Made by a program: the position numbers and the translations under genes. The notes under the pieces are model-generated. The model was not told where the DNA came from. It searched no databases and was given only the letters and a program-made list of their open reading frames with translations. This document shows positions 1,441 through 35,670 of a DNA stretch of 64,000 bases, piece by piece. This DNA comes from Prionailurus viverrinus. Taxonomy: Eukaryota. Positions within the stretch are counted from its first letter, which is position 1. The number at the start of each line of letters is the position of its first letter. The stretch spans positions 66,926,464-66,990,463 of the forward strand of contig NC_062566.1 of the NCBI RefSeq assembly GCF_022837055.1, given 5' to 3'.

Positions 1441-2226
1441 GAGTCTTCTCTGCCTCTCACTTTTCTCTCTGCCACTTCCTCTCACAACTTAGCAGCTCAC
1501 ACCATAGCTGTCCTATTGTCATTCCTGATCCTTGACTACACCCCAAAGGGAAGGAAAGAAGCCAGTCAGGCTTCTGGCTTCTTCCACCCCACCCCTCAAA
1601 CCTCACGCCATCCCTTCCCCACTCCAGGTGCCTGGCTCCTTCACCTCCGCCCTCCTCATCTTCCCCACACACAGCACTCGCGCCTCATCAGCTGGCACCC
1701 TGTGCAGCGCCAGGTCCAGGCAAGGACTTCCGCTTCAGAATGAAAACCCAGAGGCTCTTAGGGGCTGCAGGCTGAGGCAATGCTGGACTGAGCCTGCAAG
1801 TTACCTGAGAAAGAATATAGTTCATGGTTGGCCTTTCCACATTTTTCATCTTGATCCATGGGTCAGAATCATCATTTTTCTGACTCTCCTCTCTTGGCCC
1901 CTACACATTGGCTACTGGAGCGTCTTGACTGTCTTTCCAGCCAAATGCACTTTCCCCACCAAGAATGGTGTCAGGGTCCCTAAACCTTGTGGAGTTGTTC
2001 TGGGCCTCCTCTCCTTCCCTTCTCCAACAGCGTTTTCCAGGAATTCTGGAGCCACCTTTTCCTCAATGAAGACCATATATACAAAAGCGGTTTGTGAGTT
2101 GTAAAACACTGTGCTGGAATAAGATGCTATCATGAATCAAGCCTTCTCTTTCTCCCCCCATAATCTCTGTCCTTCTCTCATGACGTTTCTCATCCCTTCC
2201 TCCCTCCATGCACTGCCGCTCCCCAC

Positions 2227-2779
2227 TCACCCAGCAGGTTTGGTTTGGTGCCGTGAGGGAACCAAAGCTATGTGCTGCACAGTGGGCAGGGTCAGGATGC
2301 AGGCAGGCATCTCAGCCCGAGGCCTTGGCAGAGTTCCCAGGCAGAGCCATCGGCCCAGGCCAGGAGAATAAGCATGGATAAGGTGGGAGAGGGCGTAAGT
2401 ACGGTGGCTGTAGCCCCCCAGCACCAGAAGCTCTCCCTGCAGTGCAGCCCCTGCGGCCCCCACATGGGGGGAGGGCAAGGGTGCCAGGTGAGTCCAGCTA
2501 TCAGTCCTTGGTTCATAGGCCTCGAAGCTCAGCAGGTCCCCAGTCTCACCTAGCCCACCCGCGACATACAACCGTCCACCCAGAGCGGCCATGACGTGGC
2601 CAGCCCGAGGTACCCCCATAGCGCTCAGAAGCACCCCTGGCTTCTCAAGTTTGGGGTCATAGTGCAGCAATGAGGCCAGGTATTGGCCAGCCCCGCTGCA
2701 GCCACCGCTCACGTACAATCGGCCCTCCAGAACCGCAGCTGCGTGGGCAAAGCGTGGTGCTGGAAGAGCAGGTGCCGGC
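2227..2779 (-). CDS. KLHL33: KLHL33-like terminal coding exon (kelch repeats; stop at 2227-2229)
   Basis: ORF 2227..2718(-) extends in frame up to acceptor cccttAG (AG at 2780-2781). Kelch motifs PRFAH...GRLYVSGG, GGRLYVAGG, GELLVLGG. Phase 1+552 nt fits the upstream exon ending ...ACTCTCAG. Confidence 0.65.
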
Positions 2780-3165
2780 CTAAGGGAGAACAGGGCACAC
2801 GATCAGGCAAAAATCCTCTTCAACTCTCCTCCTCCGAGTCCTCTAGGCTTTCCCTGATGTCTAGAAACAGCCCCTTCCCTGCTCACCTCCAGACATTCAG
2901 CTCGGGGTGATAGGTCTCCACAGAGTTGAGGGCGACGCCACCGTTTCGGCCGCCCAGGGCATAAAGTAGTCCGTCCAGCGCCACCAGGGGAAAAAAGCTC
3001 CGAGCCTGGCACAAAGGCGCCATCTCCTCCCAGTCCTCTTGACTGGGGCCCCACCTGGACACAGCGGGACCAAAGAAGAGTGACCCCGGGCCCCCGTGGC
3101 TGGCTGGGCCAACAATTCCCCCTCAGCTGCCCACCTCGGGGCCTGCTATTCCGTGGGGCCCCTAC

Positions 3166-4090
3166 CTGAGAGTCGAAGCCAGGGTGTTGGAGTGGCTGTA
3201 GAAATCCTGTCCCCCACACACGTAGAGCTCACTTCCTGCGAGGCTCGCAGCCCCGTGCCGGAAGCGCCCCGGGGCAGGCAGGGCAGGCAGCCGCCCCCAC
3301 TCCACGGTTCGCACCAGTCCCGTGCCGCAGCAGAAGGCGCGCGCCCACCACACTCCTCGCGACGGCTGTCTTATGGCCATGTCTGCTCTGAGCCCGTCCC
3401 CGCCAATCACTACCAGTGCCTGGTCAGGCTCCCTGCGCCGCTCTTGACCTGGAACGGCAGCCTCTACCAGGAGCTGATGCAGCAAGTCCGCGGTCAGGGG
3501 TGGAGGCAGCCCCGCGGCCCGCACCCTCCGCAGCTCTCTGGTGGACATGCGGCCGAAGCGAACACATCGAAGCAGGGCCTTGGCCTCTGACTCCTGGGTC
3601 TCAGGGTTGGCAGCTAACCAACGCCACGCAGCCATGAAGGCCTCGAACTCCTCTTGCACGTGTAGTTCGTCGCTATCCAGGAGCTCAGCCAGGCAGGCAG
3701 CCGGTAGAGAAGGGAAAGTGGGGCACAAAGCCACAGCAGGCAGGTGGGTGAGGAGGTAGTGACGGGCTTTGCTCCAGAGCCTCTCTAAGCCCGGGGCTTC
3801 CGCTATGGGGAACAGGGCCAGGCAACGTGCGGGGCTGAGGCCCCGAGCCAAGGCTCTCTGGCACAGAGCAAGGCAGGAAGAGCTCTGGTACTGGAGAGCA
3901 GCCTGGGCAGCTCTCAGCAGTCCTGGCCACCTTGCCCGCACAACCCCGGAGTAGGCGAAGGAGACGAGGAGTCGCAGGTCCTGGGCAGAGATAGTGTGCA
4001 GAGACACCTCTGTGCCCTGGGATTCCCTCATCCCGCTCAGGAGCATGGCACCAAAGAACTCGCTGCCACAGGCCAGGGCTGCTCGGTGCA
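3166..4090 (-). CDS. KLHL33: KLHL33-like large internal exon: bulk of a second BTB domain, BACK domain, first kelch repeats
   Basis: ORF 3162..4187(-). Strong acceptor tcccctctgcttctccttgcAG at 4091-4092, donor CTCAG|GTAGGG at 3164-3165. 925 nt = 2+921+2, phase consistent with both neighbouring exons. Motifs VHRAALACGSEFFGAM, LLVSFAYSG, ELYVCGG. Confidence 0.65.
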
Positions 4091-4598
4091 CTGCAAGGAG
4101 AAGCAGAGGGGAATCCAGAGTGTTGCTGATTGCCAGGCACCCTGCTGACTTCACGTCCCCGACTTTGGGCCAACCACCCAAGGCCACAGGCTAAACCATG
4201 GTGTGCATCAGAATACTGTGCGGTGCTTGTTAAACTGTGGGTTTCAGGGACCCACCCCCAGAGATTCTGATTCAGTAGGTCTGGATGGAGACCCTAGGAA
4301 TTTGTATTTCAACATTTTCAAGCACCCTGCATGATTCTCATGTTAGTGGCCTGAAGACACTGTGATAAACATTGCTTTAGTTTTTTGATCCAGGTCAATT
4401 AGAAAAAGAGTCTTGATTGATCAAGTTGAGTAGATGCTATAGACAGCTTTTGCTAAAAGGGGGCACAAAATAAACTGCAAAGACCAATGGTGCAAATTAC
4501 ATAGGTCTCTATCATGCACACACAAAAAAGTTCTTTCCTTTACAATTGTAAGAGCCACTGACATCAGCCAGGATTTTACTTAGAAAGTGGTACCACAC

Positions 4599-4820
4599 GG
4601 GGTGTTTGGGTGGCTCAGTCAGTTAAGCGCCCCACTTTGGCTCAGGTCATGATCTCACAGTTCATGGGTTCGAGCCCTGCATCAGGCTCTGTGCTGACAG
4701 CTCAGAGCTTGAAGTCTGCTTCAGATTCTGGGTCTCCCTCTCTCTCTGGCTCTCCCCTACTCATGCTCTGTCTCTGTCTCTCAAAAATAAATAAATGTTA
4801 AAAATTTTGCCTAAAAAAAA
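4599..4820 (+). mobile_element. Carnivore tRNA-derived SINE (CAN-SINE)
   Basis: Head GGGGTGTTTGGGTGGCTCAGTCAGTTAAGCG, tail ...CAAAAATAAATAAATG + A-run. TSD tggtaccacac. Confidence 0.85.
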
Positions 4821-5799
4821 ATGGTACCACACTTACGAATCTCTGTGACCTAACCTAATCTAACTGCCGTCTCCCACTTAAGATTTCCCATGTGCAGCTT
4901 TTCGCTGCACACCCCATCTTCATCTCAGTACATTTCAGGTAATCGTGACATTTTAAGCTGGAAACCTTCAAAATCATCCAGTTCGATTGCTCCTTTTAAC
5001 AGAAGGAAACTGAAAGAGAGGAAGTGATTTATTTTCTATTCCATGTAATGGCTGCCCGAGCAGATCTTCACCCCCCAACGCCACTGATGTCAGGCTGCAG
5101 TGAGCATACTTGTGTATCGGTACCCTTCTTACCTGCATGGCCCTCACGCCACTGAAACTATTCTGTTACCGGATGCTATTAAATATAAATGTAAATAAAT
5201 TCTTTCTAATGTAATGCAATTTGAGATACTTGGCATCAGGTATGGAGTATTCTGACTAAACTGTTGAACCTAAATCTAATTGAACCCTTAGATCTAAATT
5301 CAAATTTATAGGAAATTGAGAAGCTAAAGGAACAAGCTAAACAAAACCATAATGGAAAACACACACACATCTAGAAAATGGAGCATTCTATAAGATAACT
5401 AATCTTATTTCTTCAGTAAGTCAAGTCATAAAAAAGGAGAGGACTGTACAAGAGTAAAGGAAGCTTAAAAGACATGTATCTGAGTACAGCATAGTCCTTG
5501 ATTGACTCCTGGGTTGGATAAGCCAGCTCTACAAGACATTTTTTGGACAAGTGGGAAAATTTCAACTTGGACGAGGTGATACTAAGGAATTATTGTTAAT
5601 TTTGTTAGAAATGAGTACGGTATTGTGGTTATATGTCCTCTTTTAAAGAGACATGTACCCAAGTATTTGTAAGGGAAATGTCACAGATTTACTTTAAACT
5701 TCGGTGATAAGCAAAATAAAGAGATGAGACAAATATCATAAAATGTTAATTGTTAAGTCTGAGATATGGGTGTTTGAGTGTTCATGTTAATACTTTCTT

Positions 5800-6012
5800 G
5801 GGGTGCCTGGGTGGCTCAGTCAGTGAAGCATCCGACTCTTGATTTCAGCTCAGGTCATGATCTCACAGTTTGTGGGTTTGAGCCTTGCGTTGCAGAGTCT
5901 GCTTGGGATTTTCTCTCTCTCACCCTCTCTCTCTCTCTCTCTCTCTCTCTGCTACTCCTCTGCTTGTGTTCTCTCTCGCTCTCTCAAAATAAATAAACTT
6001 AAAAAATATTTT
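5800..6012 (+). mobile_element. CAN-SINE with internal (TC)n expansion
   Basis: Head GGGGTGCCTGGGTGGCTCAGTCAGTGAAGC, tail CTCAAAATAAATAAAC. (TC)n at 5923-5950. Confidence 0.85.
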
Positions 6013-6199
6013 CTTAATTTGCTATGTGTTTGAAATGCTTCATAATAAAATAGGGAGAAAATGCTGCCAGAAGTCCTCTTAGGCAGGTACCAGGGCCAAA
6101 CACCCAGTGAAGCTATGAACATGAGGCTGCTTTGACCGACCGTGGCACGTTTGCCTGTCTCAAAGGACATGTGATGTTAATGTGGCTTTCCAGTGTCTT

Positions 6200-6414
6200 T
6201 TTAAAAAAAATCTTAAATGTTTATTTATTTTTGAGAGAGAGAGAGAGAGAGAGAGAGCGAGCAGGGGAGGGGCAGAGAAAGAGGGAGACAGAGTATCTGA
6301 AGCAGGTTTTGTGTTGAGAGCAGAAAGCCCAATGTAGGGCTTGAACTGACAAACCATGAGATCATGACCTGAGCTGAAGTCAGATGCTTAACCCCCTGAG
6401 TCATCCAGGTGCTC
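6200..6414 (-). mobile_element. CAN-SINE (reverse orientation) with (GA)n in tail region
   Basis: Reverse-complement SINE body ending ...gagtcatccaggtgctcc; T-rich start; (GA)n at 6233-6260. Confidence 0.8.
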
Positions 6415-6745
6415 CTCCATTTTAAGCAGCAGGTAGTGCCTACATGCTTCCCAAATAGTAACTATCAGTGACAGTTTTCAGATACATATTGCCTGAGAAA
6501 ACCTGCATTCCTTGAAGCAGGTAAGCCATTTCATTTTCCATGTAATCAACCAACCTATAGCTCAGAGTCACTGTGAAAGGGTCACAACTATTTACATTCT
6601 CCCTCCTCCTCATCATTATTCCCTAGAATTTTAAGTGACAGGTTTCTACCATTACGTTGGAATGTTTCTTAGGAAAATGAAAGCAAGGATAGAAGTATGT
6701 TTAAATTTGAAACCCTAGTGAGAATTTTATAACTATGAAATTTTA

Positions 6746-6965
6746 TTTTATCTATTTTTAAAATAATTTATTATTGTTTATTTACTTTTGAGACAGACAG
6801 AGTGTGAGCAGGGGAGGGGCAGAGAGAGAGGGAGACATAGAATCCGAAGCAGGCTCCAGGCTTGGAGCTGTCAGCACAGAGCTTGATGTGGGGCTCGAAC
6901 TCACCACGAGATCATGACTTGAGCCAAAGTCGGATGCTTAACTGACTGAGCCACCCAAGTGCCCC
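6746..6965 (-). mobile_element. CAN-SINE (reverse orientation), 17-bp TSD
   Basis: ...gactgagccacccaagtgcccc at 6965. Perfect TSD ataactatgaaatttta at 6729-6745 and 6966-6982. Confidence 0.85.
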
Positions 6966-8506
6966 ATAACTATGAAATTTTAAATCCCCCCTCCATCTAC
7001 TACTATCAGAAACAATAACAAACACTTTAGAGACCTGCTATGGATTGAATGTTTATGTCTTCTTCCCTCCTTCCTGTGTTGAAGCCCTACTCCCCAGTGT
7101 GGTGATATTTGCAGGTGGAGCCTTTGGGAGGTAATTAGGTATGAGAGTAGAACCCTCCTGAATGGAATTACTGCCCTATATAAGAGATATGACTGAGATA
7201 ATCTCTCCCTCCACCAAGTGAAGAGGATACAGTGAGAAGGTGGCCCTCTGCAAGCCAGGAAGAGAGTCCTAATCATAACCTGACCATACCAGAACCCTGA
7301 TCTTGGACTTCCAGGCTTCAGAACTATAAGAAATAAATTTCATCACTGGGTTCTACTCCTGAAACCAATACTACACTGTATGTTAACTAACTTGAATTTA
7401 AATAAATACATTTTTCTAAAAAAGAAATAAATTTCTGTTGTCAAGCCATCCAGTCTATGGTATTTTTGTTAATGCAGTTCAAGTTATGACAGGATGCTTT
7501 TTCATCTGGGGGTCCCAGAAACACTGTGGGTTCCAGTCATCCTAATGAGCAGTAGCTATGTGACTTTGGACATGTCTTGAAGTCTGATTTCTTTGTCAAT
7601 AAAGTATAAAAGCTGAACTAGATACTCTCTAAAGCAATACCTTTTAATTTAACATTTTTATGTGCCTGCATTCCAACTCCATTTGTCAGATCCTGTGTCT
7701 TTGGTTTGGTTGCACAGGAGGCAATGCATGGCCTAGTGAAAACAGACTGGGCTAGTGAATACTAGGCTTATATCCTGGTTCTCACCAGTTAACATTTCTG
7801 AGTTTAATGTTCTTTCCTTACACCTAGGGATAGTGGCATCCACCTCACTAGTTTTCAGCGAGAATGCAAAGACATGGCATGTGTAAAAATTCCTGGACCC
7901 CAGTACCTCACTCAGTACTGACAGAATCTGAATAACATTCAACTTATTCAACCCTCCTTAGCTTTCCTAGTGATGAGCCTAGTTAACTTCAAAGTGCCAG
8001 GTCCTGGTAGCTTTAAGATTATGGCAAAACAAAACCAGACCTTGCTCGTTAGCTGTAGAACCCGTATCTACCATGGAGTCAAGGACACTTAGGTGAGAGG
8101 ACACACTGTGAGTTATTCCACCATATTCATCTGGCTTTCCTGTGTCCTAAATAGAAGATGCCAAGAAGGGCTTTTGGTTAATTCCTGTTTAAGTCAATCA
8201 CTTTCTACTTGTTCCCCTGGCTCAGACTGTACTCATGACACCAGCCAACTGGCTGGAAATTCTTTGGTACTGGCCACGGGGAAAGCCACAGGTTGAAGGG
8301 TCAGCTTAAGTCTGCCTGGTGCTCCTGGGTAAACAACTCAGCTGCTCATGCCTTGCTCTCAGTGGGTCAGGAAAGGCACCAAAGGCCAACCCCAAGGAAA
8401 TTCTGCCTGCAGCTGTGATCAAAACCACAATGGAAGGGATCAAACCACCTGCAGCTTGCACACACATAAATGAACCTGCAATAATGTAATGCCAAAAGGC
8501 CCTCAC

Positions 8507-9260
8507 CCCGCAGCCTGCAGCCGCCTGCCTCCAGCTCCAGGTCACACCCGATGCCCTCTTGGTATAGGAGCTCGATGCTCCGCAGGTTCTCCCTCAGCTC
8601 CTCTGCCTGGCTGGGCTGCTTTTCATCTTCCCTGGCGCTTCCAGCCCCTTTGCATCTCCACTGGGCCACGGCCTTCACCCGGGGCGCTCCCAGGGCCTCT
8701 GCCACGACCAGCACATCTCCCAGCCGTGCAGGGCCCAGCAACCCCTCATAGGCAAATGTCAGTACGGCCTCCCAGGCCCCGGCGGCCACGTCCAGGCTGA
8801 GGGGGGGTTGTGGACCTCTGCCACCCAGCAGCCTGTCACGGAAGAGGCTGCTAATTGCAGCCAAGATTACCCGATGCACCCCGTATACTCGCCCCTCAAC
8901 TGACACCTCTTCGTCCAACAACAACCTCTGCTCCCGCAGCCGCTGTGCCTCCGCGAAAAACTGGCTGGGATGCTCCTCGCTGCGCAGCTCCTCGGGCTCT
9001 GCCGCGTCTTGTTCGTCTTGGTCGTCTTCCTCCTCTTCTTCCTCAAGGGACAAGACTGGAGAGGGAAGGCTCCCTGGGGCCATGGGCCTGGGGACAGGCT
9101 CTTCCAAAGGAAAGGGGGGCAAACTGGGATCCTCATCTGGGGAAGGTGGCCAGGAGGGGGTTCTCGGGTCGGGCAAAGGTAGGTCAAGGCGATCCTTCTG
9201 GGCGGGAGCAGAGACGCTCCCAGGGTCCGAAGGACGATGTGAGGAGTCCGAGACGCTCAT
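8507..9260 (-). CDS. KLHL33: KLHL33-like upstream coding exon: acidic/Pro-rich N-terminus, a complete first BTB domain, and the N-terminal strands of a second BTB
   Basis: ORF 8367..9260(-) starts at a true ATG (9258-9260). Donor CTGCGGG|GTGAGG at 8505-8506 leaves phase 1, matching the 4090 acceptor phase. Splicing rebuilds the canonical BTB start CDLELEAGGCRLR|VHRAALACGSEFF. The start codon and possible further upstream exons are unverified. Confidence 0.5.
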
Positions 9261-9269
9261 CGTCCAGGT

Positions 9270-10420
9270 TCGCTGTTTTGCTACAGGTGAACAGAGGGAA
9301 GGGGTGGGGGGTTCAGAGCTGGACCCACAGAGGCCGGAGGAACCCCTATCTCCAGCCCGGCGACATGGCAGTCCCTCTCCCTACTTCACAGCCCACTCCC
9401 CACCCCCTTCCCAAGGCTCGAGCAGCTAGGCTATACTGCCCAACACTGGGGTTCACGAAGAGCACCGAAGCGTGCCAGAAACATGTGTACCGATCCAGTA
9501 CCCGGGACCGTATGCCACCCGGCCTGCCCCCGTCCCACCCGGATAGTCACCCTCCCTAGACACCAGCGTTCCTCCTGGCTCTCCCTTGAACCTTCTCCGC
9601 TTCGCTTTGGACCCTGTGACAGAGGAAACTGGCCCCTCAATCGGGTCAGCGGCCCCACCCGACTAATTATAGCCGGCGCTGACCGGCTAGGGGGCTGGGC
9701 TCCGGGAGCCCAGACTCTGACACCCAATCCCCCGGGCTCCGTCCCGAGATGACCTCCTCCCCCCTTCCACCTGTAGGTCACGTCCTTGTGCTGAGCGAGG
9801 CAAATTCAGAAGCCAGGGAAGATGTGGGGATCGGGTGGAGTGAGCCAGGCCGGAAAGGCTGCGTTCACAAGACGGGTCTGGGGGAGCGGGGGAGGGGGGG
9901 GGAGGGAGAAGAGAGTCTGGACTGCGCAGACCCTCCGGAACGTAGGGCCAGAAGAGGGAAGGGTGTGTTTGGAGTCAGTTCTAGGCTTTGACTGTTGGTT
10001 TTTCTGTGCACGATAAAGTTGCCGACCCTGGAGCGAACAAAATACCTACATGAAATGCGTACGTAACGCAGTTGAGTCCACCGAGGGCGAGCGGGAAGGG
10101 GAAGGGATCAGGGCTACGTGTAGGTAAACCACCCCCGGCTCGGAATTTCCTCCCTGTCCCCAGGTGGGGTCGGTGGTGAGCTAGAAAGGCCCAACCCTGT
10201 GTGTTCAGGAATTCTGGAGGAGTCTAACCCTCACCTAGATCTCTGGGATGAGGACGGATCAGTGGAAAGTGGGGTGACCGAGGCTGCGGGGACCAAAATC
10301 CTGGACTGGATGGGCCGGGGCGGGGGTGGGGGGGGGGGCGAGTAAGCACTCTCACTTAGGTAGGACACCAACAGCCACTCCCTCTGCCCAGGATAACACC
10401 TCTTTCCTATCCTGACACAC
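9270..10420. promoter_or_regulatory. CpG island / putative KLHL33 promoter region with long G-runs
   Basis: High GC and CpG density immediately upstream of the KLHL33-like first coding exon; G-runs at 9885-9905 and 10315-10345. Confidence 0.4.
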
Positions 10421-35152: not shown

Positions 35153-35670
35153 GTGAGGAGGAACACGATCAGGAAGGCCGGGTGATTGTGGCTGAATTTG
35201 ACTCATTTGTGCTGGTAACAGCCTATGTACCTAACGCAGGCCGAGGTCTGGTCCGCTTGGAGTACCGGCAGCGCTGGGATGAGGCCTTCCGCAAGTTCCT
35301 AAAGGGCTTGGCTTCCCGCAAGCCCCTTGTGCTCTGTGGGGACCTCAATGTGGCCCATGAAGAAATTGACCTTCGCAACCCCAAGGGAAACAAAAAGAAT
35401 GCTGGCTTCACTCCACAAGAGCGTCAAGGCTTTGGGGAATTACTAGAGGCTGTGCCTCTGGCTGACAGCTTCCGGCACCTCTACCCCAACACGGCCTATG
35501 CATATACCTTTTGGACCTACATGATGAATGCTCGATCCAAAAATGTTGGTTGGCGCCTTGATTACTTTTTGTTGTCACACTCTCTGTTACCCGCGTTGTG
35601 TGACAGCAAGATCCGTTCCAAGGCCCTGGGCAGTGATCACTGTCCCATCACCCTGTACCTAGCACTGTGA
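35153..35670 (+). CDS. APEX1: APEX1 last coding exon ([16 protein letters not shown]...[12 protein letters not shown], stop 35668-35670)
   Basis: ORF 35182..35670(+); acceptor tttctgtAG|GTGAGG. Total CDS 957 nt = 318 aa; ExoIII-family endonuclease motifs ([23 protein letters not shown]). Confidence 0.9.

Follow-up and report, generated by a model that had tools for sequence, protein, structure and literature searches.

A symmetric homodimer is the rule among BTB-kelch substrate adaptors, and CRL3 ligases are usually described as dimeric (PMC11074293). In KLHL3, the phi-x-E motif of the BTB domain (a hydrophobic residue, any residue and Glu; M83-S84-E85) makes the largest contribution to the surface buried against CUL3, the E85A substitution abolishes binding, and the first hairpin of the BACK domain (the 3-box) adds to the interface (PMC3616122). 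Other natural proteins with more than one BTB domain and a CUL3-linked function are RhoBTB1-3, LZTR1, IBTK and some BTB-ankyrin proteins (titles and abstracts of papers on them; Stogios et al. 2005, PMC1257465). These families order their domains otherwise (GTPase-BTB-BTB; kelch-BTB-BACK-BTB-BACK; ankyrin/RCC1-BTB-BTB). Two BTB domains have also been joined artificially in the transcription-factor fusions Miz1-BCL6 and Miz1-NAC1 (4U2M, 4U2N), and 4U2M is a tethered, 'forced' Miz1-BCL6 heterodimer that uses the homodimer interface (Stead & Wright 2014, cited in PMC7271949). Here we describe the gene KLHL33 in a 64,000-nucleotide stretch of the Prionailurus viverrinus genome (contig NC_062566.1, positions 66,926,464 to 66,990,463 of the forward strand), which as a whole is called the window below and to which all coordinates refer. 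The full-length isoform encoded there has 799 residues in the order N-terminal tail, BTB1, 20-residue linker, BTB2, BACK and kelch propeller. We consider it moderately probable that the overall explanation of this locus is a full-length double-BTB KLHL33 that makes its CUL3 contact through BTB2 and pairs its two BTB domains within one chain.

Compared with the canonical adaptors KLHL3, KEAP1, KLHL22 and KBTBD2, KLHL33 is alike in BTB2, BACK, kelch propeller and phi-x-E, but has an extra conserved BTB upstream that carries neither phi-x-E nor a 3-box of its own. The intrachain BTB pairing predicted by modelling would replace the canonical homodimer. Unlike the artificial fusions 4U2M and 4U2N, with which KLHL33 shares ~20% identity, its arrangement is natural, is predicted only, and is attached to a BACK-kelch module. 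None of RhoBTB, LZTR1 and IBTK was a close relative in KLHL33 sequence searches. Pfam recognised only BTB, BACK and C-terminal kelch families in the 799-residue product, and the partner domains specific to RhoBTB, LZTR1 or IBTK were not among them.

The locus is KLHL33, and the region 3166..9260 makes up the 5' two-thirds of the gene. A four-exon coding model was assembled from the minus strand of 2150..9600; its phases fit, and the joined coding sequence of 2400 nt gives 799 residues. The parts of the gene are as follows.

9551..9866, minus strand: probable non-coding first exon (5' untranslated region, UTR), boundaries approximate, placed from another species' transcript (L006).
8507..9282, minus strand: exon A, with 5' UTR at 9282..9261 and coding sequence from the ATG at 9260 to 8507 (754 nt; residues 1-251 plus 1 nt).
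4091..8506, minus strand: intron A/B (4416 nt), GT at 8506-8505 and AG at 4092-4091, skipped by orthologous transcripts.
3166..4090, minus strand: exon B (925 nt), which by Pfam holds the rest of BTB2, BACK and the start of the kelch propeller.
2887..3054, minus strand: exon C (168 nt), kelch repeats, set by splice sites and frame; orthologous transcripts align over 3057..2880.
2227..2779, minus strand: coding part of exon D, kelch repeats, with the stop codon TGA at 2229..2227.

Exon A ends in GGC TGC AGG CTG CGG G|GTGAGG with the donor at 8506, and the acceptor ctccttgcag precedes exon B at 4090 (context ctctgcttctccttgcag). At the 5' end, the RNA-derived orthologous contig L006 aligns over 9866..9553 and then jumps to 9282; the splice signals there are GT at 9550-9549 and the acceptor ctgtag before 9282. 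At the other end the 3' UTR runs on below 2227, and L006 aligns down to 1821. The conceptual product matches RefSeq XP_047716925.1 ('kelch-like protein 33 [Prionailurus viverrinus]') residue for residue, so that the exact model is already annotated. It is 81–92% identical to other eutherian KLHL33 proteins over 100% of its length (profile search), which have the same exons and domains. The annotated long isoforms (XP_047716925.1; human NM_001365790; pig F1S8H2; Tasmanian devil XP_003755846.3) represent the same gene with no difference. The first-pass annotation of this DNA, made from the letters alone, had called the gene KLHL33-like, which the identity to XP_047716925.1 bears out. Its coordinates and translations were found correct when the minus strand was re-read and the exons were assembled, but its product length of 743 residues was wrong.

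On the protein, the following elements were delimited.

8976..9260, minus strand: acidic and proline-rich N-terminal extension, residues 1-95, probably disordered, without a Pfam match.
8661..8972, minus strand: BTB1, residues 97-200 (alpha1 and core BTB fold), without phi-x-E; PF00651.
8601..8660, minus strand: inter-BTB linker, residues 201-220, of variable sequence.
8507..8600, minus strand: N-terminal part of BTB2, residues 221-251 (alpha1, strand B1 and the start of B2), at the 3' end of exon A.
4090..3840, minus strand: remainder of BTB2, to about residue 335, including phi-x-E M272-R273-E274.
4044..4046, minus strand: ATG of Met267 in mid-BTB2, equivalent to the start of the human 533-residue form (NP_001103467.2, P0063, which starts MLLSGMRESQ).
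3824..3522, minus strand: BACK, residues 341-441; Pfam PF07707.

Both BTB segments were recognised by Pfam. BTB1 scanned alone matched PF00651 at 35.4 bits (E = 1.3e-8, residues 106-198; gathering cutoff 20.5), and BTB2 at 56.1 bits (E = 4.9e-15; residues 232-332 in the whole-protein scan). The BTB, BACK and kelch order of KLHL and KBTBD adaptors is present (PF00651 at 232-332, PF07707 at 341-441 and five stretches of PF01344), with the extra BTB lying upstream of it. The dedicated family PF21536 (BTB_KLHL33) scored 83.2 bits at residues 267-329 against a cutoff of 27. The best solved relatives of BTB1 were NAC1, ZBTB7A, ZBTB9 and BACH1 (lowest E 1.9e-12, with the Miz1-NAC1 fusion chain), KLHL proteins being weaker matches; those of BTB2 were KBTBD2, KBTBD4, KLHL26 and KEAP1. 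The alignment of BTB2 with the BTB of KBTBD2 crosses the exon A/B junction (GGCRLR|VHRAAL) without a gap. The first-pass annotation had read a full BTB in exon A and a second one across this junction and had proposed a domain search as a check. That search scored both segments as PF00651 above the cutoff, and the view that a second BTB is unusual among KLHL proteins is likewise supported. The double BTB is visible to anyone running Pfam on the long RefSeq KLHL33 proteins.

The two BTB domains differ at the place where CUL3 would be contacted. In BTB2 the phi-x-E motif is M272-R273-E274, the counterpart of L-S-E in the KBTBD2 alignment; across ten taxa E274 never varies and M272 is conserved to at least 90%, and BACK follows directly after BTB2. 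BTB1 has GGRGPQ at the equivalent place, no conserved hydrophobic-x-Glu was found there in any of the ten taxa, and no 3-box follows BTB1. Because only BTB2 keeps phi-x-E, we assign the putative CUL3 contact to BTB2 together with the 3-box. On these sequence features, KLHL33 would be a CUL3 substrate adaptor in which BTB2 and the 3-box at the start of BACK make the contact and BTB1 does not.

Structure prediction points to pairing of the two domains in one chain. AlphaFold2 modelled residues 92-353 from an alignment of 56 full-length orthologues with a predicted local distance difference test (pLDDT) score of 90.7 and a predicted template-modelling (pTM) score of 0.89. BTB1 was mostly at pLDDT 93–98, its loop at residues 142-151 at 77 and the linker at ~64, and strand 248-252 of BTB2 was built across the exon junction. 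A Foldseek search of the model against PDB gave 4U2M and 4U2N chains as its top six matches (240–244 aligned columns; template-modelling (TM) score 0.66–0.76 normalised to the query and 0.74–0.85 to the target), whereas every single-BTB match had a query-normalised TM score of 0.48 or less. No natural solved tandem BTB matching both domains was found among the PDB matches of the model. Because it superposes on the tethered dimer 4U2M, we read the model as an intramolecular BTB dimer. The linker, counted by hand, is 14–27 residues long in the ten taxa aligned; this short linker and the near-invariant alpha1 helices are compatible with intrachain pairing of BTB1 and BTB2. According to the model, BTB1 and BTB2 would pack via the canonical BTB dimer interface within one chain, a natural 'single-chain dimer'. 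Each KLHL33 chain would accordingly present a single CUL3 site and a single kelch propeller, in place of the symmetric two-site homodimer. The wider proposal, that KLHL33 and its deuterostome relatives are natural single-chain-dimer CUL3 adaptors in which BTB1, as a degenerate partner, permanently fills the dimer interface of BTB2 and every BTB pair carries one CUL3 site and one propeller, is made tentatively, its chances being somewhat short of even.

The upstream BTB evolves under purifying selection. The exon-A genomic open reading frames (ORFs) of four other mammals, mouse included, were codon-aligned with that of the window, and the ratio of nonsynonymous to synonymous substitution rates (dN/dS, Nei-Gojobori) was calculated for the 10 pairs among these 5 mammals. 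The ratio was 0.17–0.33 for BTB1 in all 10 pairs and 0.27–0.44 for the whole of exon A. For the N-terminal 95 codons it was 0.30–0.86, a weak constraint. In the same frame beyond the donor the ratio was ~1 or saturated, with indels. The similarity of the ORFs collapses directly after CRLRGEGL, and the donor G|GTGAG is kept in all 5 mammals. The segment of residues 221-251 and both alpha1 helices are nearly invariant in mammals. The acidic, proline-rich N-terminal extension, pointed out as atypical by the first-pass annotation, is thus real but weakly constrained; it is present in eutherians and marsupials; in gharial, newt, amphioxus and hemichordates it is missing or short.

The architecture is ancient. 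A query of BTB1, linker and BTB2 was searched against 1.84 billion representative proteins. Colinear matches over the full query were found in Tasmanian devil (775 residues, 68% identity), gharial (756), newt (743), paddlefish (784) and several teleosts and, among invertebrates, in three amphioxus proteins (713–739 residues) and the hemichordates Ptychodera (718) and Saccoglossus (741). All ten relatives that were scanned had two PF00651 stretches and passed the cutoff of PF21536, and nine had both BACK and kelch; the tenth (P0147) had BACK, and a kelch match above cutoff was absent. The order BTB1, linker, BTB2, BACK and kelch was colinear in the ten-protein alignment. Judged from these sequences, the double-BTB order is conserved across deuterostomes and is not recent.

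The splice that joins exons A and B is used in orthologous mRNAs. Two contigs assembled from public sequencing runs of other mammals, 81–89% identical to the window, carry uninterrupted ORFs: L005 (SRR33486306, 2611 nt, ORF of 811 residues) and L006 (SRR1584453, 3499 nt, ORF of 795 residues). Both align to the window as 8507 | 4091...3156 | 3057...2880 | 2781, and their junction sequence matches the predicted join. Because the genomic locus carries a 4.4-kb intron where the contigs join, we take them for spliced mRNA. The 8507-to-4090 junction drawn by the first-pass annotation is the one used both here and in XP_047716925.1. The comparison that it had suggested with annotated long isoforms also came out in its favour: exon-A ORFs are orthologous in more than 40 mammals, and models of ~795–800 residues, alike in exons and domains, are the usual KLHL33 form in more than 40 eutherians (profile search; badger 799 residues, 92% identity; sheep X1 800; pig F1S8H2 796; elephant 795). 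Long forms elsewhere have 774–778 residues in marsupials, ~742–825 in gecko and turtle, 756/793 in gharial and ~743–908 in teleosts. In human, one variant is numbered p.G542R on NM_001365790 (exon 3) and p.G278R on NM_001109997 (exon 2) in a passage of PMC12119447. From this offset of 264 residues it follows that NM_001365790 encodes 264 extra N-terminal residues relative to the 533-residue form.

That 533-residue human form, labelled 'isoform 2' in RefSeq and entered in UniProt as A6NCF5, lacks residues 1-266. Starting from Met267, it is without BTB1 and the first third of BTB2, and a complete BTB is impossible in it. Position 1 of PF21536 also aligns to residue 267.

Three other explanations were weighed. 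According to one, exon A would mainly yield a short BTB1-only protein by intron retention or skipping of exon B, the kelch protein would mainly be a 533–583-residue form that uses an internal start or a different first exon, and the 799-residue form would be minor or merely predicted. The mouse MGC (Mammalian Gene Collection) cDNA B7ZMY3 fits this, being exon A read into the intron (218 residues), as do the Ensembl models of pig, rabbit and squirrel in which exon A is joined to exon C out of frame, a seal KLHL33 isoform X3 with a different first exon, and the UniProt human entry, which is the 533-residue form. However, without exon A, BTB2 loses alpha1, B1 and most of strand B2, and the 533-residue form begins inside the domain. 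The last 31 codons of exon A, which are meaningful only as part of BTB2, belong to the part nearly invariant in mammals. The exon boundary R|VHR is kept in a distant, 53%-identical orthologue (P0082), RNA-derived contigs from two species carry full-length ORFs, and the A-to-B reading frame and both BTB domains are conserved from hemichordates to mammals. We regard this explanation as improbable. Still less credit, close to none, is given to a second BTB that arose by recent intragenic duplication in mammals or carnivores, or to a long model that is an annotation fusion of two neighbouring genes. The two segments are indeed adjacent homologous domains, and the first-pass annotation had suggested an intragenic exon-segment duplication, with a dot-plot of the two exons as its check. 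In the recent sense this did not hold: exon A against exon B DNA (blastn, word size 7) gave chance-level matches only, of 20 nt or less, BTB1 and BTB2 of the window share only 30% protein identity (E = 2e-4), the nearest solved relatives of the two differ, and the same architecture is found in fishes, amphioxus and hemichordates. In a neighbour-joining tree, which is a rough distance tree and not a test, vertebrate BTB1s form a group separate from the BTB2s, their own included. A fusion of two genes is excluded because BTB2 itself is split across both exons. A duplication predating the deuterostome radiation is possible. BTB1 and BTB2 are 33–35% identical in amphioxus versus 20–24% in vertebrates, and the same tree places one amphioxus BTB1 together with the BTB2 of its own protein.

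The remaining explanation accepts both domains and places their pairing between chains, each BTB with its counterpart or with the other BTB. This would add a further dimerisation module to a conventional dimer, or build head-to-tail oligomers as in SPOP with its two self-association domains. Isolated 'long form' BTB domains usually homodimerise and some ZBTB BTBs assemble into filaments (descriptions of the PDB matches), CRL3 activity is generally described as dimer-dependent (PMC11074293), and an AlphaFold2 monomer run is unable to sample intermolecular pairing. On the other side, the single-chain model is confident as a unit by its pTM score and superposes on the tethered BTB dimer over 219–244 positions, the linker is uniformly short in ten distant taxa, and the asymmetric divergence, with phi-x-E in BTB2 only, is easier to reconcile with a fixed heterotypic pair than with two independent homodimerisers. 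We judge pairing between chains to be unlikely, while giving it appreciable weight. Several further points count against the double-BTB, intrachain-paired KLHL33 that we prefer. The splice support comes from orthologues and the RefSeq model, not from transcripts of this species. The mouse cDNA B7ZMY3, besides retaining the intron, is without 31 residues of BTB1, and some Ensembl models skip exon B, so that short or aberrant KLHL33 isoforms exist. A first AlphaFold2 model, built from a shallow, exon-fragmented alignment, had low confidence in both BTB domains. The pseudo-dimer may be a modelling bias, since a homodimer interface learned by AlphaFold2 can be transferred to tandem repeats. In the 81 papers found to name KLHL33, we came upon no experimental report on its CUL3 binding, stoichiometry or substrates.

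As a genome feature the locus is ordinary: the gene is already catalogued and its prediction is correct. Its ancient architecture is under-described. The widely used human 533-residue protein (A6NCF5) and PF21536 both begin in mid-BTB, and family surveys based on that form misdescribe the protein. In passages of a published KLHL phylogeny, KLHL33 was placed in no clade (PMC10146909), and it is absent from the main text of the 2013 KLHL family review (PMC3658946). In the titles, abstracts and selected passages of the literature naming KLHL33, its second BTB is not described. Preferential expression in skeletal muscle is stated in a passage of PMC7672584, and no KLHL33 substrate or function was described in the literature found. 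What might be new is only the intrachain pseudo-dimer: an extra BTB, conserved from hemichordates to mammals, that is confidently predicted by modelling to pair with the putatively CUL3-binding BTB of the same chain. If this is true, KLHL33 would depart from the symmetric-homodimer rule and stand out among CRL3 adaptors as asymmetric, each chain having one CUL3 site and one propeller. Its built-in BTB heterodimer would have to escape, or be regulated by, the dimerisation quality control of FBXL17. KLHL33 would also offer a natural system in which to test how BTB domains pair and how dimer quality control works.

Several other isoforms and models of the gene were noted. PF21536 spans only the last 63 residues of BTB2, beginning exactly at Met267, and apparently derives from a protein truncated at its N terminus. 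The 31 in-frame BTB1 residues missing from mouse B7ZMY3 (P0048; equivalent to ~8746..8838, residues 135-165) are encoded by the mouse genomic ORF (P0039). UniProt lists predicted proteins with a matching 31-residue gap for donkey, polar bear, wombat, ground squirrel, guinea pig, mole rat and hamster. The gap may be a genuine exitron, or it may be a copy of the one in the mouse protein. In the short Ensembl models of pig, rabbit and red squirrel, 8507 is joined to 3054 (4090..3166 skipped) with the out-of-frame tail GGTPVKRTGRRW, and such an isoform would encode only BTB1 and a fragment of BTB2. A 744-residue 'isoform X2', close in length to the 743 residues of the first-pass annotation, is present in several cetaceans and a deer; its identity is lower over full coverage, and therefore another alternative splice form exists.

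The homologue searches gave three further observations. Amphioxus has at least three double-BTB kelch paralogues (P0122, P0125, P0202), which NCBI names KLHL9, 13, 26 or 36 by best hit; this naming hides the BTB-BTB-BACK-kelch architecture that they have in common with KLHL33. The 120 best matches of the KLHL33 family include crocodilians, turtles, geckos, snakes, amphibians and fishes, with no bird among the matches listed, which may be a loss in birds or a sampling effect. The felid and other eutherian long KLHL33 proteins fall in a 90%-identity cluster whose representative, the TEP1 protein P0246, is without similarity to KLHL33. This odd cluster masked the long isoforms from the initial homologue search, which gave exon-wise ORFs and short models. 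A TEP1-KLHL33 read-through protein as the representative was rejected as the explanation, since the TEP1 representative has no similarity to KLHL33. The Lynx pardinus 'telomerase protein component 1' VFV32178.1 (3258 residues) probably fuses the neighbouring TEP1 and KLHL33 and bridges the cluster.

Elsewhere in the window, the plus strand carries the last exon of APEX1 at 35182..35670, which corresponds to residues 158-318 of human APE1 (E = 1.8e-108). Human APEX1 is located close to KLHL33, and the APEX1 of the window is consistent with that neighbourhood. Intron A/B of KLHL33 holds four copies of a carnivore tRNA-derived short interspersed element (SINE), identified by eye only, at ~4600..4800, 5800..6000, 6240..6420 and 6790..6965. 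Their heads are ggggcacctgggtggctcagtc-like, both orientations were seen, and two copies adjoin GA/CT dinucleotide microsatellites.

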